A stretch of 64,000 nucleotides of DNA from an uncultured Lentisphaeraceae bacterium (GCA_964557205.1 CAZKZI010000001.1:29284-93283); one strand, 5' to 3'; positions 40,666 through 56,790 are shown, counted from the stretch's first letter. Notes: generated from the letters alone by a model not told the origin. Made by a program: numbers and translations.

Positions 40666-40732
40666 GCTTGATGCATCAAGCCCCTACTCTTTCACTCTTC
40701 TCTCTTCACTGTAGGGGCTTGATGCATCAAGC
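40666..40732. repeat. 22-bp perfect inverted repeat (itself containing the 16-bp palindrome gcttgatgcatcaagc) with 23-nt pyrimidine-rich loop, between gatC and gatA
   Basis: Left arm gcttgatgcatcaagcccctac (40666-40687). Loop tctttcactcttctctcttcact. Right arm gtaggggcttgatgcatcaagc (40711-40732), exact reverse complement. Loop motif recurs at 47131-47160. Confidence 0.7.
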
Positions 40733-41031: not shown

Positions 41032-41211
41032 CCTGAAAACTCCCGGCCGAACCGACTCCAGCCCTTTTAAACAAATGGTTAAAGTGTACTCCTCTGACAC
41101 CAATGACTCAATTCAAATCTAGCCTGCGCCAGGACAAAAATGCCCGACATAAAACAGAACGGGCACGGCTGACGCCGCGCCCGCCCACAAGATTTTTTCA
41201 AAGACCTCGGC

Positions 41212-41880
41212 TTATTCGCGCCCGTAGATCTCCACTTCCGTGTAGTGGTTCATCTCGTTCGAGGTGTTGCCGCGGCTTGAGAAGCGCACATAGCGCCCCT
41301 TTACGCCGGAAATTGCGAACGGACGACCGTAGTGCTCTTCGATATACTCCTTGTCCTTGCCCTCTCCCAGCTTAGACGAGTTGTCGTGGTCGTTGTTGAA
41401 GACTGTCACAACCCCGTCAATGAAGTCAGGGTCATTCGATATCTGGCAGATCACATCGCGGTAGACACGCGCCTCGCCGTGATAATGCCAGACGCACGCC
41501 GCGTGAATCTCTTTCTCCGCGCCAAGATCGACCTGCACCCACTGGGTGTTGGGTCCGAGTTCTACATACGTGGCGGCATCGTGCTCTTTGTCACCGTCCG
41601 TGATGTACTCAAGCTCGCCGATGATCGGCTCTGGGTCGCTCGATGTCACCTTGCAATCACGCGACAGAACCTTGTCCGCTCCAGCCGGCACATCTACCGG
41701 CGGACGCGGTTTGCCACCCCTGGGCGGCTCAAGATTCGGGGAGCGTATGTCCTTTGGCGTTCCCGTGAACTGCGGCTTAGGCAGTTCGATCTTCAACTGC
41801 ACTTTGCCCGCCTCCTGCGCCCCGGCCACAACGGCCAGTCCGGCCAGCACGGCCAACATCGTCATTCCTGTTTGTTTCAT
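41212..41880 (-). CDS. secreted F5/8 type C (discoidin/galactose-binding-like) domain protein
   Basis: 222 aa. Signal peptide MKQTGMTMLAVLAGLAVVAGA. Pro-rich linker then discoidin-like domain (WVQVDLG...VRFSSRGNTSNEMNHYTEVEIYG). AGGAGAG RBS. Confidence 0.65.
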   Translation of the reverse strand: MKQTGMTMLAVLAGLAVVAGAQEAGKVQLKIELPKPQFTGTPKDIRSPNLEPPRGGKPRPPVDVPAGADKVLSRDCKVTSSDPEPIIGELEYITDGDKEHDAATYVELGPNTQWVQVDLGAEKEIHAACVWHYHGEARVYRDVICQISNDPDFIDGVVTVFNNDHDNSSKLGEGKDKEYIEEHYGRPFAISGVKGRYVRFSSRGNTSNEMNHYTEVEIYGRE

Positions 41881-41911
41881 GTTTCTCTCCTTTGTTGCTT
41901 GGTTCGTTTTT

Positions 41912-41956
41912 TTCAGACCTGTCCAACCTATCAGACCTGTCCGACACGTCAGACCC
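41912..41956. repeat. tandem CAGACCTGTC(C) repeats in 5' leader of the discoidin-domain gene
   Basis: cagacctgtcc at 41914-41924 and 41932-41942, gtcagaccc at 41948-41956. Same decamer family recurs at 45675-45714. Confidence 0.6.
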
Positions 41957-41969
41957 TAAACACCTCATG

Positions 41970-42926
41970 TCAATAAACGGCCGGAAACACTCCGAAAGTG
42001 CGCACCGGACTACGCAGCCGATCCAGCCATTCCGCCTGCCCGCGCGCCACCATCACGCCGCTTCCCTCCAATTCCGAACAAGCCCGCTCTATCTCACCCG
42101 GCGTCATAGCCAGGCTCGACGTCGAAAGCGCGTCCGCAACTGCCGCCGTCGGCGCGTATGCCCATGCGGCGCTGTGTCGCACTGCCGCATAACCTCTGCG
42201 CACGTCCACCACATGCGCGCCTTTGACCTCATACCCGGAACCGCTCAAGGCTCCGCCGGCCAACCTCACCGTTTCAAGTCCGGCACGCTTACGCCAGTCG
42301 CCGCCAACATCAACCGGCCAACCTTCAATTCCGTCCTCCATCGATCCTCGCGCAACAACCGTGCTGGTCCCTCCGTGGATCAGGAAATCTTTAAAATCCC
42401 AGTCACTTTCAAGCATTTCACATGCCATGTCCAAAGCGTAGCCCTTGGCTACCGCGCCGAAATCCATTTCCAGCGGCGCTGCCCGCCCAAGCCGATCCGG
42501 CTTGACCGACACCAACAGATTCTGCGTGTCGATGACCAGCCTGTTCATGCCGCACGCCGCCAACGCGCTCTCGCGCTCCTGCCCGGTCAGCGCCTGCCAG
42601 CGGTGCTTGACCTCGCGCAACGCATCCATCACCGTCCCGACCGTCACATCAAAGCAGCCGCCGGTTGCAGCACAAACCCGAGTCGAAATCAGCAGCAGCT
42701 CCAGCATCTCCGGCGCCACCCGGAAGGTTTCCCCGGGTTTCAGCCGACTGATCAGCGCCACCTCGCTGGCGTCAAGAAACCGACTGCACAACTGTTCAAG
42801 CTTGTCCACCTTCTGAAACACGGCGTGCGCCGCGCTGCCCGCCAACTGCCGGTCGGCGGCAACCACCAGCAATTCAAACACCGTCGACATCGCCTTGTGC
42901 TCAAACCGGCGGACGCGATCTGTCAT
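41970..42926 (-). CDS. apbE: FAD:protein FMN transferase (ApbE family)
   Basis: ApbE motifs AMSTVFELLVV (MGT-like), DFGAVAKGYALD, HGGTSTVVARG. ATG at 42926 (10 nt after cytochrome stop) chosen over track GTG 42953. No obvious signal peptide. Confidence 0.8.
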   Translation of the reverse strand: MTDRVRRFEHKAMSTVFELLVVAADRQLAGSAAHAVFQKVDKLEQLCSRFLDASEVALISRLKPGETFRVAPEMLELLLISTRVCAATGGCFDVTVGTVMDALREVKHRWQALTGQERESALAACGMNRLVIDTQNLLVSVKPDRLGRAAPLEMDFGAVAKGYALDMACEMLESDWDFKDFLIHGGTSTVVARGSMEDGIEGWPVDVGGDWRKRAGLETVRLAGGALSGSGYEVKGAHVVDVRRGYAAVRHSAAWAYAPTAAVADALSTSSLAMTPGEIERACSELEGSGVMVARGQAEWLDRLRSPVRTFGVFPAVY

Positions 42927-42936
42927 AGAACAACTC

Positions 42937-45663
42937 TTATTCCTTGCGGCCACCGGTCAGCAACATCCAGACCGACACGGCAAGGAACGCCATGGAGGAA
43001 CAACGGTGCAACCAAAGCATCGCCACCTGCCACTCCGTGCCAAACCATGTCATCATCGGCGCGACCGCCGAGACAATCACCAAAGCTCCAAGGATCATGG
43101 TGACCATCCACCAGCCGTTGCGCCGCATGTTCGACAGCCTGCGCCCGCCGCGGAACCAGATCAAGGCCACCAGACAGGCAGCGAAAAGACCGCCCGCCAC
43201 CATGTGGAAGACCAGCACATATCCGGTCATCAGATGGAACAGCCAGCCGGCCAGCCCCGAAAGACCCAGATAACCCCCGGCCAGACCCAGCCCGATCGCC
43301 GCCAGCTTGTCCAGAGTCATCATAAGCTTTTCGGACGAACGGCCGTACGGTATCCCGCCCTTCGACAAAACCGCAGGCAAAGCCACCGACACAAACGCCA
43401 CCGAAACCAAGGCGAGCAGCGCGCATACCGCCCACAGGAATATCTTGAAGAACGGGCGCATCAGGAAGGTGGTGCCGAACACCTTGTTGTAGCTGCCGCT
43501 CAATTCCATAAACGCATGCTGTGCCTTGACCAGCGTATGGGATGTCAATAGCGGTCCAGTGGAAGCTACCTGCGTAAAGAAAAACGCGGAGTCAATCGTG
43601 TGGCAATCGTCGCACTTGCTCGGTGCCGCGCCGCGCGCCATGCGCGCGGGCCGCACATCATGCCCAACCGCCCACGACACCGCCGCCGCCGCCGGCTCTT
43701 CGTGCGCGACCAATTTCGCATCCTGACCGAGTTCCCATACCTGACCGTGCGCCACGTAAACCGCGCGCTTTGTTCCAGCCTCACTCAGCCGCTTCAAGCC
43801 CGCCGCCACCATCTCTTCGGTCAGGGTGCAATCGCTGTCGCCCAGTTCTTTGACGTTGCGCACAACATACTCTGACAACAACGGCGAGAAAGTGCCGTTC
43901 TTATACCAGCCCGCCTGCGGTTTGGCGCACTCGACCGGCGAGTTGGTGCTTGTCATGGTGTCGCCGCTGCCGCCGCGGTAGAACAGCTTGCCGCCATACA
44001 CCACCGCACCGTATCCATTGGTCACCGCCATCGGCGACGCATCCAATGTCTGCAAAAGGTCTGACAGCTTCCTCTCTGCCTCATTGCGTGCGACAAGCTG
44101 GTCGTCTTCCATCTTCTCAGTGTCCGCGCCCGGCTCATACGCCGGAATCACGGCGAACAGATTGGTGTCGGTCTTGTAGAACCATCCGTCGGCAGACACT
44201 TTCCCGACGACCGGCTCCGCGACATTGTCCACGTTGCTCTGAAACAGCTTGCCGCCTACCGCCAGCACTGGCTTGCCTGGAATGTTGGCGTTGCTCGCGA
44301 GACCCGCCAGCATCCCCCCGACCTGTTCGCGCACATCCAACAGACCCGAGCAAGCCTGATGCACCGCCTCCGGCAACAGCGGGGTGACCTTGGCCGCGTC
44401 ATCCGAATCCCGCGCGCCCCAGAAAGCCGGCCAAACCATGCGCCGCGGCTCGATCTTGCCTTGGCTGTTGCGCACGAAAACCGGTTCGAGTATGAACGGC
44501 TGAGGCGTCACCCAGCGCGCCCGCCCGTACACACCCATGCGGTTGGCCCGCGAGGTGCGCACCTGCGCCAGTTTGCCCTCTTCCGTCACGCCGGAATGGC
44601 AAGCCGTGCAGCTCAAATTCTCGAAGTGGCTGACCGGTATGCCCACATGGCGCGGCAGCGGAGAGCCATGCCGACCGGCCTTGACCTTGTCCGTGCCCGA
44701 ATGACACCCCGCGCAACTGGCCGTCGCGCGTGTCTTGTCCATACACCCAGTCGTGTCGCCCTCATAGCCCCGCGCGACCGCGTGATCCAACCCGGCCGCA
44801 TGGCAGTCCGTGCAGGACATGCCAGCCCGCAGATGCACGTCGCCATCGATATCCTTATTCGCCATACCGGCCTGCGAGGTCGAATGACAGTTGAGGCAGT
44901 TCTCGGATTTCGGCTTGCCGACCTCCAACACCACACGATTCTTGGCGTCGAACTGACGCTGGTCGTATATCACATGCGGCGGCACGGCATAAATCGCATC
45001 GTCGCGGTTGATGCCCTTCAACAACCCCCAGTAGTCGGCCACGCGAAAGCCCATGCCGCGAATCTCGCCGAGCCCCAGCGCACCGGTCGCTGCCCAGCGG
45101 TAGTTCTGCCGCAGGATCAGCCGCACCCACTCGCTGTGGTCATAAGCCTTGCTGTGGCTGTGGCAGGCAAAACAATTGATCTCGACCGGTCCAGAAACCT
45201 CCCAGCGTGCCTGCGAGCCGCCCTCTGCAAACAGGTCTTCGGGCTCGGCTATGTCGCCGCCGGGCAGATGTCGCCCGAACGCATACACCCACTCCCAGTC
45301 GGTCATTCCCAACTCGCCCGGCTTGTGCGTCCCTGACCAGTCGCGCAGGCTCATCGGTATCTGCGATCCGCTCACCGGATCAACCAGAAACCACGGCTGT
45401 GCCGGACGCCCCGGCTCCTGCGCCGAAGACATGTTGGAATGCCAACCTGACGCGATCGTATCGTAGTCGTGGCACTGACCGCAGGTCGTGCGTGTGCTCA
45501 TAGGCAAGGCGTTCGGTGCGCCGGGCACTATCGGGTCGCCAAATTCGTCATTCAGCGCCAGACGGTGTACCGGCACATTGCGTCCGCCGTTCCAGTGCGA
45601 CTCTACCTTGGCCAGCGCCGCGACCGCCGCAAGCGCCAACATCATTGTCAAAAGTCTTTTCAT
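42937..45663 (-). CDS. multiheme c-type cytochrome (7 CxxCH) fused to C-terminal ~5-TM His-containing membrane (cytochrome b-like) domain; CbcL-like quinol oxidoreductase candidate
   Basis: Signal peptide MKRLLTMMLALAAVAALA. Heme motifs CGQCH, CFACH, CLNCH, CTDCH, CAGCH, CTACH, CDDCH. C-terminal hydrophobic helices with conserved His (WLFHLMTGY, VFHMVAGG, LWLHRCS). Track start 45723 trimmed to ATG 45663. Confidence 0.8.
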   Translation of the reverse strand: MKRLLTMMLALAAVAALAKVESHWNGGRNVPVHRLALNDEFGDPIVPGAPNALPMSTRTTCGQCHDYDTIASGWHSNMSSAQEPGRPAQPWFLVDPVSGSQIPMSLRDWSGTHKPGELGMTDWEWVYAFGRHLPGGDIAEPEDLFAEGGSQARWEVSGPVEINCFACHSHSKAYDHSEWVRLILRQNYRWAATGALGLGEIRGMGFRVADYWGLLKGINRDDAIYAVPPHVIYDQRQFDAKNRVVLEVGKPKSENCLNCHSTSQAGMANKDIDGDVHLRAGMSCTDCHAAGLDHAVARGYEGDTTGCMDKTRATASCAGCHSGTDKVKAGRHGSPLPRHVGIPVSHFENLSCTACHSGVTEEGKLAQVRTSRANRMGVYGRARWVTPQPFILEPVFVRNSQGKIEPRRMVWPAFWGARDSDDAAKVTPLLPEAVHQACSGLLDVREQVGGMLAGLASNANIPGKPVLAVGGKLFQSNVDNVAEPVVGKVSADGWFYKTDTNLFAVIPAYEPGADTEKMEDDQLVARNEAERKLSDLLQTLDASPMAVTNGYGAVVYGGKLFYRGGSGDTMTSTNSPVECAKPQAGWYKNGTFSPLLSEYVVRNVKELGDSDCTLTEEMVAAGLKRLSEAGTKRAVYVAHGQVWELGQDAKLVAHEEPAAAAVSWAVGHDVRPARMARGAAPSKCDDCHTIDSAFFFTQVASTGPLLTSHTLVKAQHAFMELSGSYNKVFGTTFLMRPFFKIFLWAVCALLALVSVAFVSVALPAVLSKGGIPYGRSSEKLMMTLDKLAAIGLGLAGGYLGLSGLAGWLFHLMTGYVLVFHMVAGGLFAACLVALIWFRGGRRLSNMRRNGWWMVTMILGALVIVSAVAPMMTWFGTEWQVAMLWLHRCSSMAFLAVSVWMLLTGGRKE

Positions 45664-45674
45664 CGTTAGTTCCC

Positions 45675-45714
45675 TGTCTGTCAGACCTGTCAGACGCGTC
45701 CGACCTGTCAGACT
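45675..45714. repeat. tandem CAGACCTGTC-family repeats in 5' leader of the multiheme cytochrome gene
   Basis: ctgtctgtcagacctgtcagacgcgtccgacctgtcagac. Same motif family as 41912-41956, same orientation relative to the downstream (minus-strand) gene. Confidence 0.6.
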
Positions 45715-45725
45715 TTTGCGCACTC

Positions 45726-47069
45726 TTACACGTGGAAGTCTTCAGGCTTGAAATGGATCGTCTTGCCCTCGGCCACTGAACGGTTGGCCGCCAACACCGC
45801 CACCGCCGACTCATAAGCCAACTCCGCCGGACAGGTCAGCAATTCGGGCTTGTTGCGACGCACCGCCAGGAAGAAGTTCTCCAGATGCGGCATGTGCGCC
45901 GGCTTGAGCAAGTCAACCGGCAGCGGCCAGCCGTCGGCCTCGGCCGTCACGCGCACGTCCAGCGCCACGTTGGAGGTCACGGCCGCCGCGACCGGTTTTT
46001 TGACCGGCAGCACCAGCCCCTGCTTGGCGAAAATGTCCCAGTTCGGCACGCCGTCACGCACCTCGCGCTGTACCGCGTTGCCGCGCGCCGCAATCTCCGA
46101 GATGGTCAGTGAGCCGTTCTCTCCCATGAACTGCTCGTAAAAGCCGCCGCGGCTGGAGGTCGTCAGCACCTGATAGTAGGCGCGGTTGACAACCCCCTCC
46201 TTGGTCTTGAACTCGTAAATCGTCATAACGTTGTCATTCATCTGGCGGTTGTAGTAATCGTTGCCGCCGATGGCCGTGACCGTTATCGGCGCGCAATCCC
46301 ACACCCAGAAGAAGAGGTCGATCTGATGCGAGCCCAAGTCCACCATCGGGCCGCCGCCGTACTTGTCGAACCAACGCCAGTTGAGAAACTGCTCCATGTT
46401 CTCGTAGCCGTACTTCTGCAAGGTCTCGGTCGGAATGTTCAGCCTTTCGCGCACGGTCAGGAACGGCGCCACCGAACGGTTCCATTGCCCATAGGCGTGA
46501 GTCACGCGGCCTAGCATCTTCGCCTCGCGGATCACGCGGTTGATGGCGTGCATATAGCGCGGATTGGATCGGCGCTGATGCCCGATCTGAAAGATTTTGC
46601 CGGTGCGGCGCTGCCCTAAAACCATCTCCCTGGCCTTCTCCATCCGGTTTGACATCTCTTTTTCGCAATAGACGTTCTTGCCCTTCTCCATACAGTAGAT
46701 GCTGTGCTCGGCATGCATCCAGTCCGGCGTCGCGACGATCACGCAGTCGATGTTCTTGTCTTCCTTGTCCAGCATCTCGCGGTAATCTTCGTACACGTTG
46801 ATATCGTGACCCAGCGCGCGCAGACGTCCACGCGCCATCTTGCGGCGGTAGCCCCAGATGTCACAGACCGCCTTGAAACGGACTCCCGGTATCTTCATCG
46901 CCGCATCGGTCAGAATCTCGCCTTCGGCACCGTACCCGATCACAGCCACGTTCACCTGGTCATCCTTCGGACCGATCGTGTTCTTGTCGTCACTCAGGAT
47001 ATTGAAAGTCGGCAGAATGGCCGCCGCGGCAGCGGTATTCTTGACAAATTGCCTGCGATTGAATTTCAT
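45726..47069 (-). CDS. Gfo/Idh/MocA family NAD(P)-dependent oxidoreductase with twin-arginine (Tat) signal peptide
   Basis: MKFNRRQFVKNTAAAAAILP Tat motif. Rossmann VAVIGYGAEGE. Gfo/Idh/MocA C-terminal domain. ATG 47069 with AGGAAAAGG RBS. Confidence 0.85.
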   Translation of the reverse strand: MKFNRRQFVKNTAAAAAILPTFNILSDDKNTIGPKDDQVNVAVIGYGAEGEILTDAAMKIPGVRFKAVCDIWGYRRKMARGRLRALGHDINVYEDYREMLDKEDKNIDCVIVATPDWMHAEHSIYCMEKGKNVYCEKEMSNRMEKAREMVLGQRRTGKIFQIGHQRRSNPRYMHAINRVIREAKMLGRVTHAYGQWNRSVAPFLTVRERLNIPTETLQKYGYENMEQFLNWRWFDKYGGGPMVDLGSHQIDLFFWVWDCAPITVTAIGGNDYYNRQMNDNVMTIYEFKTKEGVVNRAYYQVLTTSSRGGFYEQFMGENGSLTISEIAARGNAVQREVRDGVPNWDIFAKQGLVLPVKKPVAAAVTSNVALDVRVTAEADGWPLPVDLLKPAHMPHLENFFLAVRRNKPELLTCPAELAYESAVAVLAANRSVAEGKTIHFKPEDFHV

Positions 47070-47130
47070 GTCCATAACCTTTTCCTCTGTTCTATACCTT
47101 GCACTTTCAGCCTCTAGCGAAAGCGAGCAC

Positions 47131-47160
47131 TCTTTCACTTTTTCACTCTTCCCTCTTCAC
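47131..47160. repeat. pyrimidine-rich 30-nt element related to loop of the gatC-gatA palindrome
   Basis: tctttcactttttcactcttccctcttcac shares a 21/22-nt core (TTCACTCTTCyCTCTTCAC) with 40688-40710. Lies between ETF-QO stop and Gfo/Idh/MocA start. Confidence 0.45.
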
Positions 47161-48801
47161 TCACATGCGCGTGTAGCGCGGCCCGTCCCCGCCCTGCGGG
47201 AAGGTCCACTCGATGTTCTGGAACGGGTCCTTGATCTGACACGTCTTGCAGTGCACGCAGTTGGAGAAATCCACATGTATTTGGCCATCCTCCAACCGGT
47301 ACACCTCGGCGGGACAGAACCTTTGACAAGGAGCGCCGTAAAGGTTAATGCATTTTTCACACACTTTACGATCCAAAATTTTGAGGTGGCAAGGCTGATC
47401 CTCGTCATGGATCGTGCCTGACATGAAGACGTCGGTCAAACGGTCGGGCGAGAGCGGGCCGCTTTCGAGTTCCTCCGGCTCCGGCAACCTGCCGCCTTTC
47501 AGCGGCAACATCTCCTCGTGGTCCGGTGCCATCGGCACCTGCCAGAACGGGAACTTGCCGAAGGTCGCCCAGGCGGCACCCGCGCTCATCACACCCAGGA
47601 TCAGATTCGTCGAAAACGGCGCGCGCACGTTCTTGACCCGCTTCAACTGCTTCCAGCCCTCGGTTTTCTTCAGACGCTCACTATAAGGTTTCAAAGCTTC
47701 CAGCGAAAAATCGTCTTTGTTAAAGCACTCCGCCAGGGTCTCGGCCGCCGCCCGCCCGGACTGCGCCGCAATGTGAATGCCCTTGATGCGCAGCGTGTCG
47801 AGCAGACCCGCGCCGTCACCCACGATCAGCACGCCGTCGGCCACCACCTGCGGCACAGAATAATACCCGCCTTCGGGAATGACCTTTGCCCCGTAGGCCA
47901 CCGCCTTGCCGCCCTTGATGTGTTCCGCGATCACCGGATGCGCCTTGAACTTACGGAAAAGCAGGTGCGGGTCAGCCTCCGGCCGCGCATAATCCAAAGC
48001 ATACGCGAAACAGATCATAACCTGCGTCGGTGACACATGATAGACGAAACCGCCGCCGTAGGTGCTCCAGTCTGAAGGATAGCCGAAGGTGTGCGCGATC
48101 TCACCCGCCCGCGACTCGTCGGCCGGCACCTCGATCACCTCTTTTACGCCTACGGCATAAGACTGCGCGCGACTCCCCGCCAGCCCCTTGCGCGCGATCA
48201 GCTTCTCTGTCAGGATTCCGCACCCGCCCTCGCCGAGCACGACGACCTTGGCGTATATCTCCTCGCCGGCCGTGAAGTTCGTTTGGGGCTTGCCGTCACG
48301 GTCCACACCCTTGTCACCGGTGCGCACGCCGATCACGCGCCCCTTGGCGTCCTCGATCAGCTCGACCGCCGCGAACCCGGTGTAGACCTCGGCACCCTCT
48401 TTCTCACAAAGCTGCGCCAAGTACTGCGTCAGCCGGGTCAGCGACCCCACCGGATACCCGTGCGCCTGCATCATCGGCGGTACCCAGGGTATCCTCATCG
48501 CATGCTTGGCGTCGAAAAACATGTGGAACGCCTCTTTGCTCACATGCGCCTCGACCGGCATCTTGCCGATCTCTTCCTCCGTCAGCAAACCGGCAAACCC
48601 GCTCATGTCGATCACCGCGCCGGAAAGCACATGACTGCCGATATTACGCCCCTTGTCAATCACCGTCACACGCGGCACAGACTTGCCCTGAGCCTTCAGC
48701 GTACGCAAAAGCGCCAGCGCCGTTGACAGCGAGGCGACGCCTGCCCCAACGCACAGTATATCGGTTTGTATCGGCTGTTTAGTTTTGTTCGCCATAAACA
48801 C
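47161..48801 (-). CDS. electron-transfer flavoprotein:quinone oxidoreductase (ETF-QO, FixC-like with C-terminal 4Fe-4S ferredoxin domain)
   Basis: 546 aa. FAD motif ILCVGAGVASLSTA. C-terminal CPAEVYRL...CVHCKTCQIKDP iron-sulfur motif typical of ETF-QO. Confidence 0.85.
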   Translation of the reverse strand: MFMANKTKQPIQTDILCVGAGVASLSTALALLRTLKAQGKSVPRVTVIDKGRNIGSHVLSGAVIDMSGFAGLLTEEEIGKMPVEAHVSKEAFHMFFDAKHAMRIPWVPPMMQAHGYPVGSLTRLTQYLAQLCEKEGAEVYTGFAAVELIEDAKGRVIGVRTGDKGVDRDGKPQTNFTAGEEIYAKVVVLGEGGCGILTEKLIARKGLAGSRAQSYAVGVKEVIEVPADESRAGEIAHTFGYPSDWSTYGGGFVYHVSPTQVMICFAYALDYARPEADPHLLFRKFKAHPVIAEHIKGGKAVAYGAKVIPEGGYYSVPQVVADGVLIVGDGAGLLDTLRIKGIHIAAQSGRAAAETLAECFNKDDFSLEALKPYSERLKKTEGWKQLKRVKNVRAPFSTNLILGVMSAGAAWATFGKFPFWQVPMAPDHEEMLPLKGGRLPEPEELESGPLSPDRLTDVFMSGTIHDEDQPCHLKILDRKVCEKCINLYGAPCQRFCPAEVYRLEDGQIHVDFSNCVHCKTCQIKDPFQNIEWTFPQGGDGPRYTRM

Positions 48802-50838: not shown

Positions 50839-51217
50839 GGCTCTCCCCGTTTTATAAGCCCGCTCACAGGCCTGATACCTGTTTCATGCTGACTATTAAA
50901 CCAAAAATACGATACCCTGTCATGTCCACCATTTGGTTATATTTTTAGCAACCGCTCAGAAGTCAGTATTCACAAGGAAAACCCAGCCGGCCAAAAAGGA
51001 ACACCAAGCGAGAATGTAGATTGGGGATTTTCAATTTGCGATTTAGACTGGGTCTTGCGTCTTGGGGTCCTGAGTCCGAATAGCATGACCCTGAGGACGG
51101 TTCTGGGAACTATCCGCTCCAACATCTGCGATCCGCATGGTAGGGACGCATCCCCTGTTTTTCCCCTCTCCATTGCGTCCACTTGGTGGTCGCAATAACT
51201 GGTTCCTTAGTTTTCTC

Positions 51218-55850: not shown

Positions 55851-55915
55851 GAAAAAAGAGCGAAAGAGGTTTAGCCGCAAAGAGCGCAGAGAACGAAAAG
55901 AAGGGAGAGATGGGT

Positions 55916-56323
55916 ATGAAGACCATGAAAGAGTTGTGCGATATCGTGCGGGAAACGGCGTATGCGATACACGTCTATCATGGTCAGGGGCATTTGGAGA
56001 AGGTTTACGAGAACGCCTTAGCCCATCGGTTGCGTAAGGCCGGCGTTGAGGTGATGCAGCAACAGCCGCTCACCGTGTATGACGAGGACGGAACGGTGAT
56101 CGGCGAGTATTTTGCGGATCTGTTTGTGGACGGCCGGCTGATTGTCGAGTTGAAGGCGTGTCGCGCGTTGGCGCCGGAACACACCGCGCAGACGCTGGGA
56201 TACTTGAAATCTGCGAGGATTGAGGATGGGATGCTGATCAACTTCGGGAGCTTCAGGTTTCAGATACAGAAGTATGCGTTGCGTGATGCGGTAAGGCCGA
56301 AAGAGGGAATTGAAGAGGTTTAG
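55916..56323 (+). CDS. GxxExxY family protein (PD-(D/E)XK-like small protein family)
   Basis: ~135 aa. VYENALAHRLRKAGVEV...YFADLFVDGRLIVELKA...HTAQTLGYLKSARIEDGMLINFG matches the GxxExxY family pattern. ATG 55916 with AAGGGAGAG RBS. Confidence 0.75.
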   Translation: MKTMKELCDIVRETAYAIHVYHGQGHLEKVYENALAHRLRKAGVEVMQQQPLTVYDEDGTVIGEYFADLFVDGRLIVELKACRALAPEHTAQTLGYLKSARIEDGMLINFGSFRFQIQKYALRDAVRPKEGIEEV

Positions 56324-56790
56324 CCGCAAAGAACGCAGAGAACACAAAGAAGAGGGAGTAGTCAGCCGGTGACAGATTGTCACCGACTGGATTGATTCAA
56401 TCTCTGCGGTCCTTGCGTTCTTTGCGGCCAAATGAATTGGAGAGGTTTAGCCGCAGGGAAAGCAGAGAGTGCGAAGGAGCAAAGCGCATTAAGAAGGAAG
56501 GAAGCCAATCGGTGACAAATTGTCACCAGTTGAAAATGGAGGCCGAAGCCGGCAAGCTGCGTCTCACAAAACGCTGTTTGTGAGACGCAAATCAATTTGA
56601 GACGAATAGGTGAGACTCAAGCGGGACCGCTCAGAGAGAAAAGCGGGAGTCAAGTCAATCGGTTACAAATTGCAACCGGCTGGAATTCGGACACTGCTCC
56701 AATCTCTGCGATCCTTGCGTTCCTTGCGGCCAAATGAATTGGAGCGGTCTTAGCCGCAGACAGGGCCAGCCTGCGCGAGCAGGTGGCGCT
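56305..56790. repeat. array of three or more related structured repeat modules; first copy of the leader at 55862-55909 precedes the GxxExxY gene
   Basis: Each module has three parts: a leader motif gaggtttagccgca(a/g)ag..gcagagaac...aagaagggag; a perfect palindrome cggtgaca(g/a)attgtcacc (56366-56384, 56507-56524; variant caatcggttacaaattgcaaccgg at 56655-56680); and the reverse-complement motif caatctctgcgrtccttgcgttcyttgcggccaaatgaattggag (56398-56443, 56700-56745). Also a separate 11-bp-stem hairpin cgtctcacaaaacgctgtttgtgagacg (56557-56584). Confidence 0.65.

Follow-up and report, generated by a model that had tools for sequence, protein, structure and literature searches.

Protective RNA structures at the 3' and 5' sides of cistron boundaries are widespread in Escherichia coli operons, occur several to an operon and are conserved between species (PMC5927463), and intercistronic stem-loops with protective or processing functions are exemplified by malE-malF, papBA, puf and menBCE (surveyed in PMC5927463). 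Here we describe two short tandem arrays of a self-complementary 9-nt unit in a 64,000-nucleotide stretch of DNA from an uncultured Lentisphaeraceae bacterium (GCA_964557205.1 CAZKZI010000001.1:29284-93283; hereafter the window, with positions counted from its first letter), and we propose tentatively, with a probability of about 0.4, that these arrays are intercistronic RNA stem-loops built of tandem self-complementary units. Like the protective hairpins, each array has a stable predicted hairpin in a short spacer between co-directional cistrons of one transcription unit, lies just past a stop codon and/or just ahead of the next ribosome-binding site, and is one of several in its operon; as in those systems the element is conserved between related species, and other relatives have different hairpins at the same junction. 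The arrays differ from the protective hairpins in that the stem consists of tandem copies of one self-complementary unit, the same sequence serves two junctions, and the sequence is conserved and not the fold alone; they are known here from sequence and predicted folds only. A stem-loop of tandem self-complementary nonamers is unusual, not revolutionary, the kind of structure being already known.

The repeat unit of both arrays is a palindromic heptamer, GTCNGAC, followed by a 2-nt spacer. On the mRNA strand array 1 (41954 to 41912) reads GTCTGAC gt GTCGGAC ag GTCTGAT ag GTTGGAC ag GTCTGAA, and array 2 (45713 to 45680) reads GTCTGAC ag GTCGGAC gc GTCTGAC ag GTCTGAC. An earlier reading of the window, made without database searches (the sequence-only reading), had placed related repeat blocks at these two sites and nowhere else in the window, in the same orientation relative to each gene, and had seen in them what looks like one shared cis element; each of these points was confirmed. 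The decamer CAGACCTGTC is present exactly at 41914, 41932 and 45682 and with one mismatch at 45700, while Tandem Repeats Finder delimits array 1 at 41913-41955 with a period of 18 (plus a period-9 row at 41913-41938) and array 2 at 45678-45713 with a period of 9 and 4.0 copies. The two-unit pattern GTCYGAYNNGTCYGA, allowing up to one mismatch, has 10 matches against 0.48 expected from shuffles, 8 of the 10 falling inside the two arrays, and the whole 64 kb contains no unit pairs at 9-, 18- or 27-nt spacing outside them. The repeats are non-random and common to both sites. The description of the unit as a tandem decamer in two to three copies had to be revised: exact decamer copies are spaced 18 nt apart and the unit is a nonamer, present five times in array 1 and four times in array 2.

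Both arrays are embedded in a series of co-directional minus-strand genes, ordered by their Pfam domains as electron transfer flavoprotein (ETF) beta, ETF-alpha (with a ferredoxin domain), ETF:quinone oxidoreductase, GFO/IDH/MocA oxidoreductase, multihaem cytochrome, ApbE and F5/8 type C protein, after which comes GatCAB. Array 2 occupies the 62-nt spacer between the GFO/MocA and cytochrome genes, beginning 12 nt past the GFO/MocA stop codon and ending 16 nt ahead of the cytochrome ATG (45663), where it adjoins a Shine-Dalgarno-like AGGGA (45675-45671). Array 1 occupies the 89-nt spacer between ApbE and F5/8, 15 nt past the ApbE stop codon and 31 nt ahead of the F5/8 ATG (41880), whose Shine-Dalgarno sequence is GGAGAG at 41890-41885. 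The cytochrome start is the ATG at 45663 and not the GTG at 45723, and 908-aa gene calls are also found in two related loci (L001 and L123; loci of the comparison are cited by such numbers). Because the arrays begin shortly after the stop codons of co-directional genes they are intercistronic spacers and not free-standing leaders, and because a single promoter box heads the operon and a terminator follows the F5/8 gene they are spacers of one operon; the 5' leaders of separately transcribed genes envisaged by the sequence-only reading are thus replaced by internal junctions (Table 1).

The predicted promoter has a -35 element ATGACA (50923-50918), a 17-nt spacer and a -10 element TTTAAT (50900-50895), and lies with its box 5.2 and 9 kb upstream of the two arrays. 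In 21 related loci the 15-nt core of the box, AATGGTGGACATGAC, is found a single time at each operon start, and the box AAATGGTGGACATGACAG is probably bound by a dedicated regulator. As a separate observation, the box core recurs before the F5/8 gene in L124, L147 and L155, precisely where the GTCNGAC array is absent. The sole strong terminator-like hairpin follows the F5/8 gene and is taken as the end of the transcription unit. A scan for sigma-70-like sites found no promoter of that type near either array, and the arrays themselves, having neither a sigma-70-like match nor a U-tract on the sense strand, were rejected as promoters, extracytoplasmic-function (ECF) sigma-factor promoters or terminators. 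The sequence-only reading had left the level of action between transcription and RNA. An RNA-level role fits better, because no promoter-like site lies near the arrays and both are inside one transcription unit.

Table 1. Positions in the window of the two arrays, of the genes that flank them and of the predicted ends of the operon
Feature	Coordinates	Strand	Remarks
Array 1	41912..41954	(-)	five 9-nt units, core GTCNGAC
Array 2	45680..45713	(-)	four 9-nt units, core GTCNGAC
F5/8 type C (discoidin / NedA-like galactose-binding) secreted protein, 222 aa	41212..41880	(-)	3' of array 1
Multihaem c-type cytochrome, 908 aa, signal peptide + C-terminal membrane domain	42937..45663	(-)	3' of array 2
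ApbE flavin transferase	41970..42953	(-)	stop codon precedes array 1
GFO/IDH/MocA-family oxidoreductase	45726..47075	(-)	stop codon precedes array 2
Putative operon promoter region	50895..50934	(-)	conserved box AAATGGTGGACATGACAG, upstream of ETF-beta (ATG 50838)
Intrinsic-terminator-like hairpin, 13 pairs (10 G-C), then T-rich tail	41157..41186	(-)	after F5/8 gene

Comparison of orthologous loci places arrays at the same positions in many species, so that the absence from close relatives by which the sequence-only reading would have been refuted does not apply to them. Three independent assemblies of the same species, from three samples, were compared (the window, L001 from ENA ERZ27248937 and L002 from JGI 3300028299): array 1 is identical in all three and array 2 is identical in the window and L001, the latter alone reaching the cytochrome junction. 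One metagenome scan yielded 80 further related loci; the cytochrome homologues are labelled Kiritimatiellae by their sources, and gene order is kept on contigs whose cytochromes share 83-64% identity. With an array called at 3 or more units and 2 or fewer mismatches, 895 kb of Kiritimatiellae loci contain 27 arrays, 12 before the cytochrome gene, 15 before the F5/8 gene and none elsewhere. GTCNGAC alone among 64 palindromic heptamer cores tested forms 9-nt arrays in the related loci (22 instances; no other core has more than 1), and at the cytochrome site the array reaches L130 (5 units, 64% cytochrome identity) and L153 (4 units, 60%). Across 119 aligned units the core positions carry 1.1-1.9 bits of information and positions 4, 8 and 9 carry 0.35-0.58 bits, and the 9-nt phase is almost unbroken by indels. 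The two sites are occupied independently, the cytochrome site only in L147, L155, L130 and L153 and the F5/8 site only in L143, L128 and L142; for this reason it is unlikely that the two arrays pair over a long range or are joined by a DNA loop.

Rfam 15 has no match at gathering score in the window, and at E values up to 10 only two chance-level matches elsewhere in 41100-47300; on this absence a known RNA family was ruled out. A literature search for this sequence or for 9-nt repeats in Planctomycetes-Verrucomicrobia-Chlamydiae (PVC) bacteria found nothing relevant. As a cis element the arrays are real, conserved and specific to one operon, and their kind is not catalogued in Rfam.

Their distribution also separates the arrays from dispersed palindromes. 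Repetitive extragenic palindromic (REP) elements of Enterobacteria and the bacterial interspersed mosaic elements (BIMEs) that they compose can stabilise upstream mRNA or affect the termination of translation. The arrays resemble REP/BIME sequences in that both are imperfect palindromes of extragenic spacers that are transcribed, in many cases no more than about 15 nt from a stop codon. REPs, however, exist in hundreds of dispersed copies that REP-associated tyrosine transposases (RAYTs) mobilise, whereas the arrays are built of 9-nt tandem units and sit at two orthologous junctions. No RAYT (IS200/IS605-like) transposase is present among the called genes of the related loci, and a dispersed REP-like or mobile element was rejected because the arrays occupy only those two sites in the 64-kb window and the 895 kb of related loci.

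Tandem units of varying number could alternatively be functionless minisatellites, kept by replication slippage and homogenisation in tolerant spacers and, at the cytochrome site, continually reseeded by duplication of a 9-nt block that holds the Shine-Dalgarno sequence. Copy number does differ between species, from 3 to 6 units; the unit type in the GFO-cytochrome spacer turns over by lineage in a manner like concerted evolution (GTCNGAC, NGGACNNAT, GTCNGAT or CCTCGATRA); and the last cytochrome-site unit is in register with the Shine-Dalgarno block (GACAGGGAA, GATAGGAAA). The clade is moreover rich in non-coding tandem repeats of periods 7 and 9 (42 and 50, whereas periods 8 and 10 account for 15 and 5), and the window holds a second shared repeat that is clearly young (GTGAAGAGRGAAGAGTGAAA, described below). 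We nonetheless regard this explanation as doubtful. The cores are alike across species down to 60-64% cytochrome identity while the N positions differ within arrays, the opposite of what neutral homogenisation would produce; the units are orthologous one by one (centres T, G, T, G) in 5 of the 7 listed members of the window's F5/8-site clade, L139 and L133 deviating at unit 3; in the closest subclade a 34-36-nt array is nearly invariant while the flanking spacer differs on both sides; the three same-species assemblies show no copy-number polymorphism; and the arrays stand at two junctions only. The local minisatellite or strain-specific slippage offered as an alternative by the sequence-only reading was not supported, given arrays that do not differ among the independent assemblies of the species and a core kept across species while the N positions drift. 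Variable-number tandem repeats (VNTRs) of contingency loci are likewise short tandem repeats placed before secreted-protein genes with copy numbers that differ between species; the arrays depart from them in their constancy across the three assemblies and in the unit-by-unit orthology and core conservation across species, and a 9-nt change in a spacer would switch no reading frame.

The predicted folding of the arrays is strand-specific. The sense strand of array 1 folds at -17.9 kcal/mol (z -2.95, 3/200 dinucleotide shuffles) and its antisense strand at -6.4 kcal/mol (z -0.37); the corresponding values for array 2 are -16.0 kcal/mol (z -2.61, 4/200 dinucleotide shuffles) and -9.1 kcal/mol (z -0.25). 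The minimum-free-energy structure of the sense strand accounts for 64-76% of the ensemble, giving one dominant predicted hairpin per array, and in array 1 it joins the first unit to the fourth and the second to the third. Such folding of an array on itself follows from the self-complementarity of GUCNGAC. Among orthologous arrays 18 of 23 sense strands match or exceed in stability all but 3% of mononucleotide shuffles, and in none of the 23 is the sense strand less stable than the antisense strand. When 12 arrays are aligned in register, 94.9% of the two-helix cells are paired and most deviations from the consensus are compatible with wobble pairing (G-C to G-U, U-A to U-G), with one double change, U-A to C-G at columns 11-24, in L133. 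Counted across every unit, there are 31 wobble-compatible changes (C3>U, A6>G and C7>U) and 11 incompatible transitions. L133 and L123, in which several cores are mutated, still fold well (-19.4 and -25.5 kcal/mol). Several relatives without arrays have unrelated strong hairpins in their place, namely L165 at both sites (z -3.4, -2.3), L129 (z -2.5), L176 (z -5.3) and L124 (z -4.8), and the cytochrome-ApbE spacer contains hairpins of other sequence (z -4.5 to -6.5), often formed by a tandem array and its inverted copy.

In the mechanism that we favour, one polycistronic mRNA would run from the promoter at about 50.9 kb through ETFb-ETFa-ETF:QO-GFO-cytochrome-ApbE-F5/8 to the terminator at about 41.17 kb, with the arrays acting in cis within it. 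Four or five GUCNGAC units would fold into one imperfect stem-loop of roughly 13-15 base pairs, in which units 1 and 4 would face each other, as would units 2 and 3, with small internal loops at the 2-nt spacers and G.U pairs at the unit centres. The stem-loop would thereby be placed between the stop codon of the upstream cistron and the ribosome-binding site of the secreted-protein cistron, where it may block 3'-5' exonucleases and/or provide a structured 5' end once an endonuclease has cut, and may set the relative stability and translation of the operon segments and so tune the expression of the two secreted proteins encoded downstream. Array anatomy, the setting in an operon, conservation at two specific sites and strand-specific predicted folds are what the sequences show; we infer that the array spacers are transcribed, that the hairpin forms in vivo and that it affects mRNA stability or translation. 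Slippage would add or remove 9-nt steps, foldability being retained thanks to the tandem palindromic units, and the core may be frozen because each unit must pair with several possible partners.

Several results weigh against a stem-loop as the function of the arrays. Permuting or randomising positions 4, 8 and 9 leaves the fold unweakened (mean z -0.1 and -0.3), and there is no covariation at these positions; by this free-position null the hairpin is automatic for any GTCNGAC array. The shuffle control of the 12-array alignment was not exceeded (58/500 for the covariation score, 101/500 for percent paired). Whole array-bearing GFO-cytochrome spacers show only modest structure, with a median z of -0.95 against dinucleotide shuffles and 3 of 12 below -2, and the window arrays folded together with their flanks gave z values of -1.3 and -1.1. 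About a dozen relatives have short, unstructured GFO-cytochrome spacers with 2-4 (A/C)GGACNNAT units (z of at least 0), so that a hairpin is not needed at this junction, and the F5/8-site arrays of L149, L137 and L125 combine good cores with mismatched centres and poor folds (z about -0.9). Mutational bias could account for the surplus of C>U and A>G changes, given the strong G>C skew of the coding strand. Finally, a hairpin alone leaves unexplained the use of the same sequence at two sites and the near-unbroken 9-nt phase.

These are the features on which a serious, if unlikely, rival builds, namely that the arrays are a multivalent platform for a sequence-specific, probably dimeric, nucleic-acid-binding protein that reads GTC/GAC half-sites at a 9-nt phase. 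Such a protein would co-regulate the cytochrome and the F5/8 protein, bound either to folded RNA or to double-stranded DNA as an operon-internal operator or roadblock with cooperative tandem binding in the manner of MetJ, TrpR, omega and NarL 7-2-7. Known operators made of tandem short palindromes include the MetJ metboxes (AGACGTCT in 2-5 copies), the tandem half-sites of TrpR, the omega heptads and the 7-2-7 heptamer pairs of NarL/NarP. In general terms the arrays share with them head-to-tail short palindromes in fixed phase with free bases between conserved half-sites; their GAC/GTC trinucleotides recall the metbox, and a heptamer with a 2-nt spacer matches the 7-2-7 geometry of NarL/NarP. 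These operators differ in overlapping promoters, whereas the arrays are operon-internal with no detectable sigma-70-like promoter, and the arrays have a period of 9, not 8 or 7, and a different sequence.

A conserved palindromic core around a free centre and followed by a free spacer, with the information contents given above, is the usual footprint of a symmetric dimer, and a binding platform would account for the lack of pairing constraint at the N positions, for the long retention of the same core at two separate and independently present sites, for a 9-nt phase held in nearly all 119 units even though the N positions are saturated, for the arrays of L149, L137 and L127 with good cores and poor hairpins, and for the confinement of the element to one operon. 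It is disfavoured by the position of both arrays inside the transcription unit with no promoter-like site adjoining them, and by the absence of a conserved regulator gene beside the operon among the neighbours in related loci. In addition, some relatives have unrelated hairpins in place of the arrays and others a GGAC repeat that is not palindromic, L133 and L123 keep their pairing while cores mutate, and folding is strand-asymmetric. A more specific version, which we rate lower than the platform in general, would make the arrays the site of an undescribed, operon-specific symmetric regulator of Kiritimatiellae, assembling as a polymer with a 9-nt phase along DNA or folded mRNA and coordinating the extracytoplasmic multihaem cytochrome with its F5/8 partner; more broadly, spacer arrays of period 7 and 9 (GTCNGAC, NGGACNNAT, TTAGGAK, and arrays with an inverted array) might then give PVC bacteria a general layer of post-transcriptional control based on repeats. 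We know of no such repeat-based regulators in PVC bacteria.

A further hairpin is found at the F5/8 junction of the relatives. GGCTTC-NNNN-GAAGCC, adjacent to the Shine-Dalgarno sequence and with compensatory variants (GCTTCgcgaGAAGC, GGCCTCacaaGAGGCC), precedes the F5/8 gene in L125 (13830-13850), L128, L129, L130, L153 and L157-L160; it is kept in most relatives and lost in the window's clade.

The arrays might instead be read as single-stranded RNA by a factor that recognises GGA or Shine-Dalgarno sequences (CsrA-like, or the anti-Shine-Dalgarno of the 30S subunit), serving as tandem decoys or standby sites through which initiation at the neighbouring start codon would be controlled. Relatives with (A/C)GGACNNAT in 2-4 copies, the last of which is the Shine-Dalgarno sequence, are in keeping with this idea, as are the F5/8-site arrays, which are mostly GTCGGAC with a conserved GAGGATTTGGG ahead of them, and the many TTAGGAK heptamer arrays, of up to 11 units, in untranslated regions (UTRs) of the clade. 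It is nevertheless improbable. The GGA-richness noted by the sequence-only reading does not extend to the units as a whole: GGA is present in 3 of the 9 window units and missing from 6, most window units and all five of the L130 array are GTCTGAC, and in L130 GGA is found only in the adjoining Shine-Dalgarno sequence. A palindromic core is unexpected for a reader of single strands, and array 1 is 31 nt, and arrays of relatives up to about 70 nt, from the start codon. CsrA sites as such were rejected on the grounds that GGA is not general; no csrA gene was found in the 2.86 Mb examined, a result uninformative for the whole genome.

Least probable of all is a translated short upstream open reading frame (ORF), rich in Ser-Asp in the frame TCN-GAC-NNG, whose translation and not whose sequence would control the downstream gene. 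All seven members of one clade have GTG or TTG before the first Ser codon, four of them with AGGA 6-9 nt upstream, and six of the seven yield ORFs of 14-24 codons such as (M)SDVSDVSDRSDKR; in L128 the frame is open for more than 100 codons, and L130 has ATG-(SDx)5-TAG before the cytochrome gene. The start codon is, however, absent in most of the window's clade and at the window's cytochrome site, and the frame keeps no constant relation to the two neighbouring genes. The L143 and L123 arrays, two sequences read by eye, differ by 3 synonymous and 7 non-synonymous changes, and position 1, a third codon position, is conserved, for which coding gives no explanation. A small ORF, not conserved and evolving without protein-level constraint, was accordingly rejected.

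Elsewhere the same DNA pattern is mostly coding, as (Ser-Asp-X)n, a point in favour of an upstream ORF and also a caution for motif mining. (GTCNGACNN) in 3 or more copies is common in bacteria and viruses (L003-L122, L211-L290); L059 and L062, for example, are orthologous Verrucomicrobiales proteins with an (SDx)4 insert. Among the matches listed by a three-unit scan of 185,579 genomes, many are PVC and Bacteroidales loci, and about half lie inside long ORFs in the Ser-Asp-X frame; among the matches listed by a separate viral scan the pattern is likewise frequent. Intergenic matches outside the clade have unrelated flanking genes; of the 22 such cases flanked by co-directional genes, 13 have the better fold on the sense strand and 6 the worse, which is suggestive only. 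Arrays of Lentisphaerae and Verrucomicrobia sit in other repeat scaffolds (L072 700-1740, L080 1-600 and L099 5250-5700). In a Lentisphaerae genome the scaffold ggcgtggcgc-[array]-ggtgcgcc is present in several copies, four with a GTCTGACYT array, and another copy, together with a further site with a different left flank, has ACGGTAACTA x4 or TCTCATAAT x4 in place of the array; two Verrucomicrobia genomes have GTCGGACAR arrays of 17-31 units beside a dispersed repeat of about 65 nt. With matches that are coding, beside unrelated genes or in other scaffolds, we do not claim one common cross-phylum family.

The window and the clade contain other repeats. The second shared intercistronic repeat is the purine-rich GTGAAGAGRGAAGAGTGAAA, at 47141-47160 (-) in the ETF:QO-GFO spacer and at 40690-40709 (-) in the GatC-GatA spacer. 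Unlike the GTCNGAC arrays it has no counterpart in relatives, and so fails the refutation test that the arrays pass; it is found only in the same species and was therefore copied recently; the copy at 40.7 kb is flanked by a 20-nt direct repeat, AGGGGCTTGATGCATCAAGC, the second copy of which holds the GatA start. The region 55860-56760 is non-coding and of low GC (0.47), with three copies of a hairpin element about 145 nt apart whose arms are 9-nt repeats (CGCAAAGAA x3 versus TCTTTGCGG x3) around an inner hairpin, GGTGACAGATTGTCACC. A MITE-like element (miniature inverted-repeat transposable element) or a cluster of small-RNA genes could account for the region, which has no Rfam match at gathering score. 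In the clade, whose non-coding tandem repeats strongly favour periods 7 and 9 as counted above, many repeats are TTAGGAK heptamers with GGA, the 11-unit case lying in the F5/8 3' UTR, and many arrays are paired with an inverted copy to give a long hairpin; examples of period-7 and period-9 arrays are L135 10467-10541, L138 10458-10490, L159 8837-8968 and L128 1544-1747.

The arrays bear directly on annotation. The longest cytochrome ORF (928 aa, from GTG 45723) over-extends the gene by 20 codons through array 2, and a spurious 403-aa antisense ORF (41892-43103, +) starts just upstream of array 1 and runs through it, opposite ApbE; both errors are caused by the arrays.

To our knowledge almost nothing is known of gene regulation in Kiritimatiellae and other free-living PVC bacteria. 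Formation of stem-loops from these arrays would illustrate a simple evolutionary route to RNA stems, in which tandem duplication of a self-complementary unit lets a hairpin grow in 9-nt steps. Placed at two junctions of a conserved ETF/multihaem-cytochrome/ApbE operon across a family-level clade, the element offers a testable handle on how the ratio of cytoplasmic to secreted redox proteins may be set.

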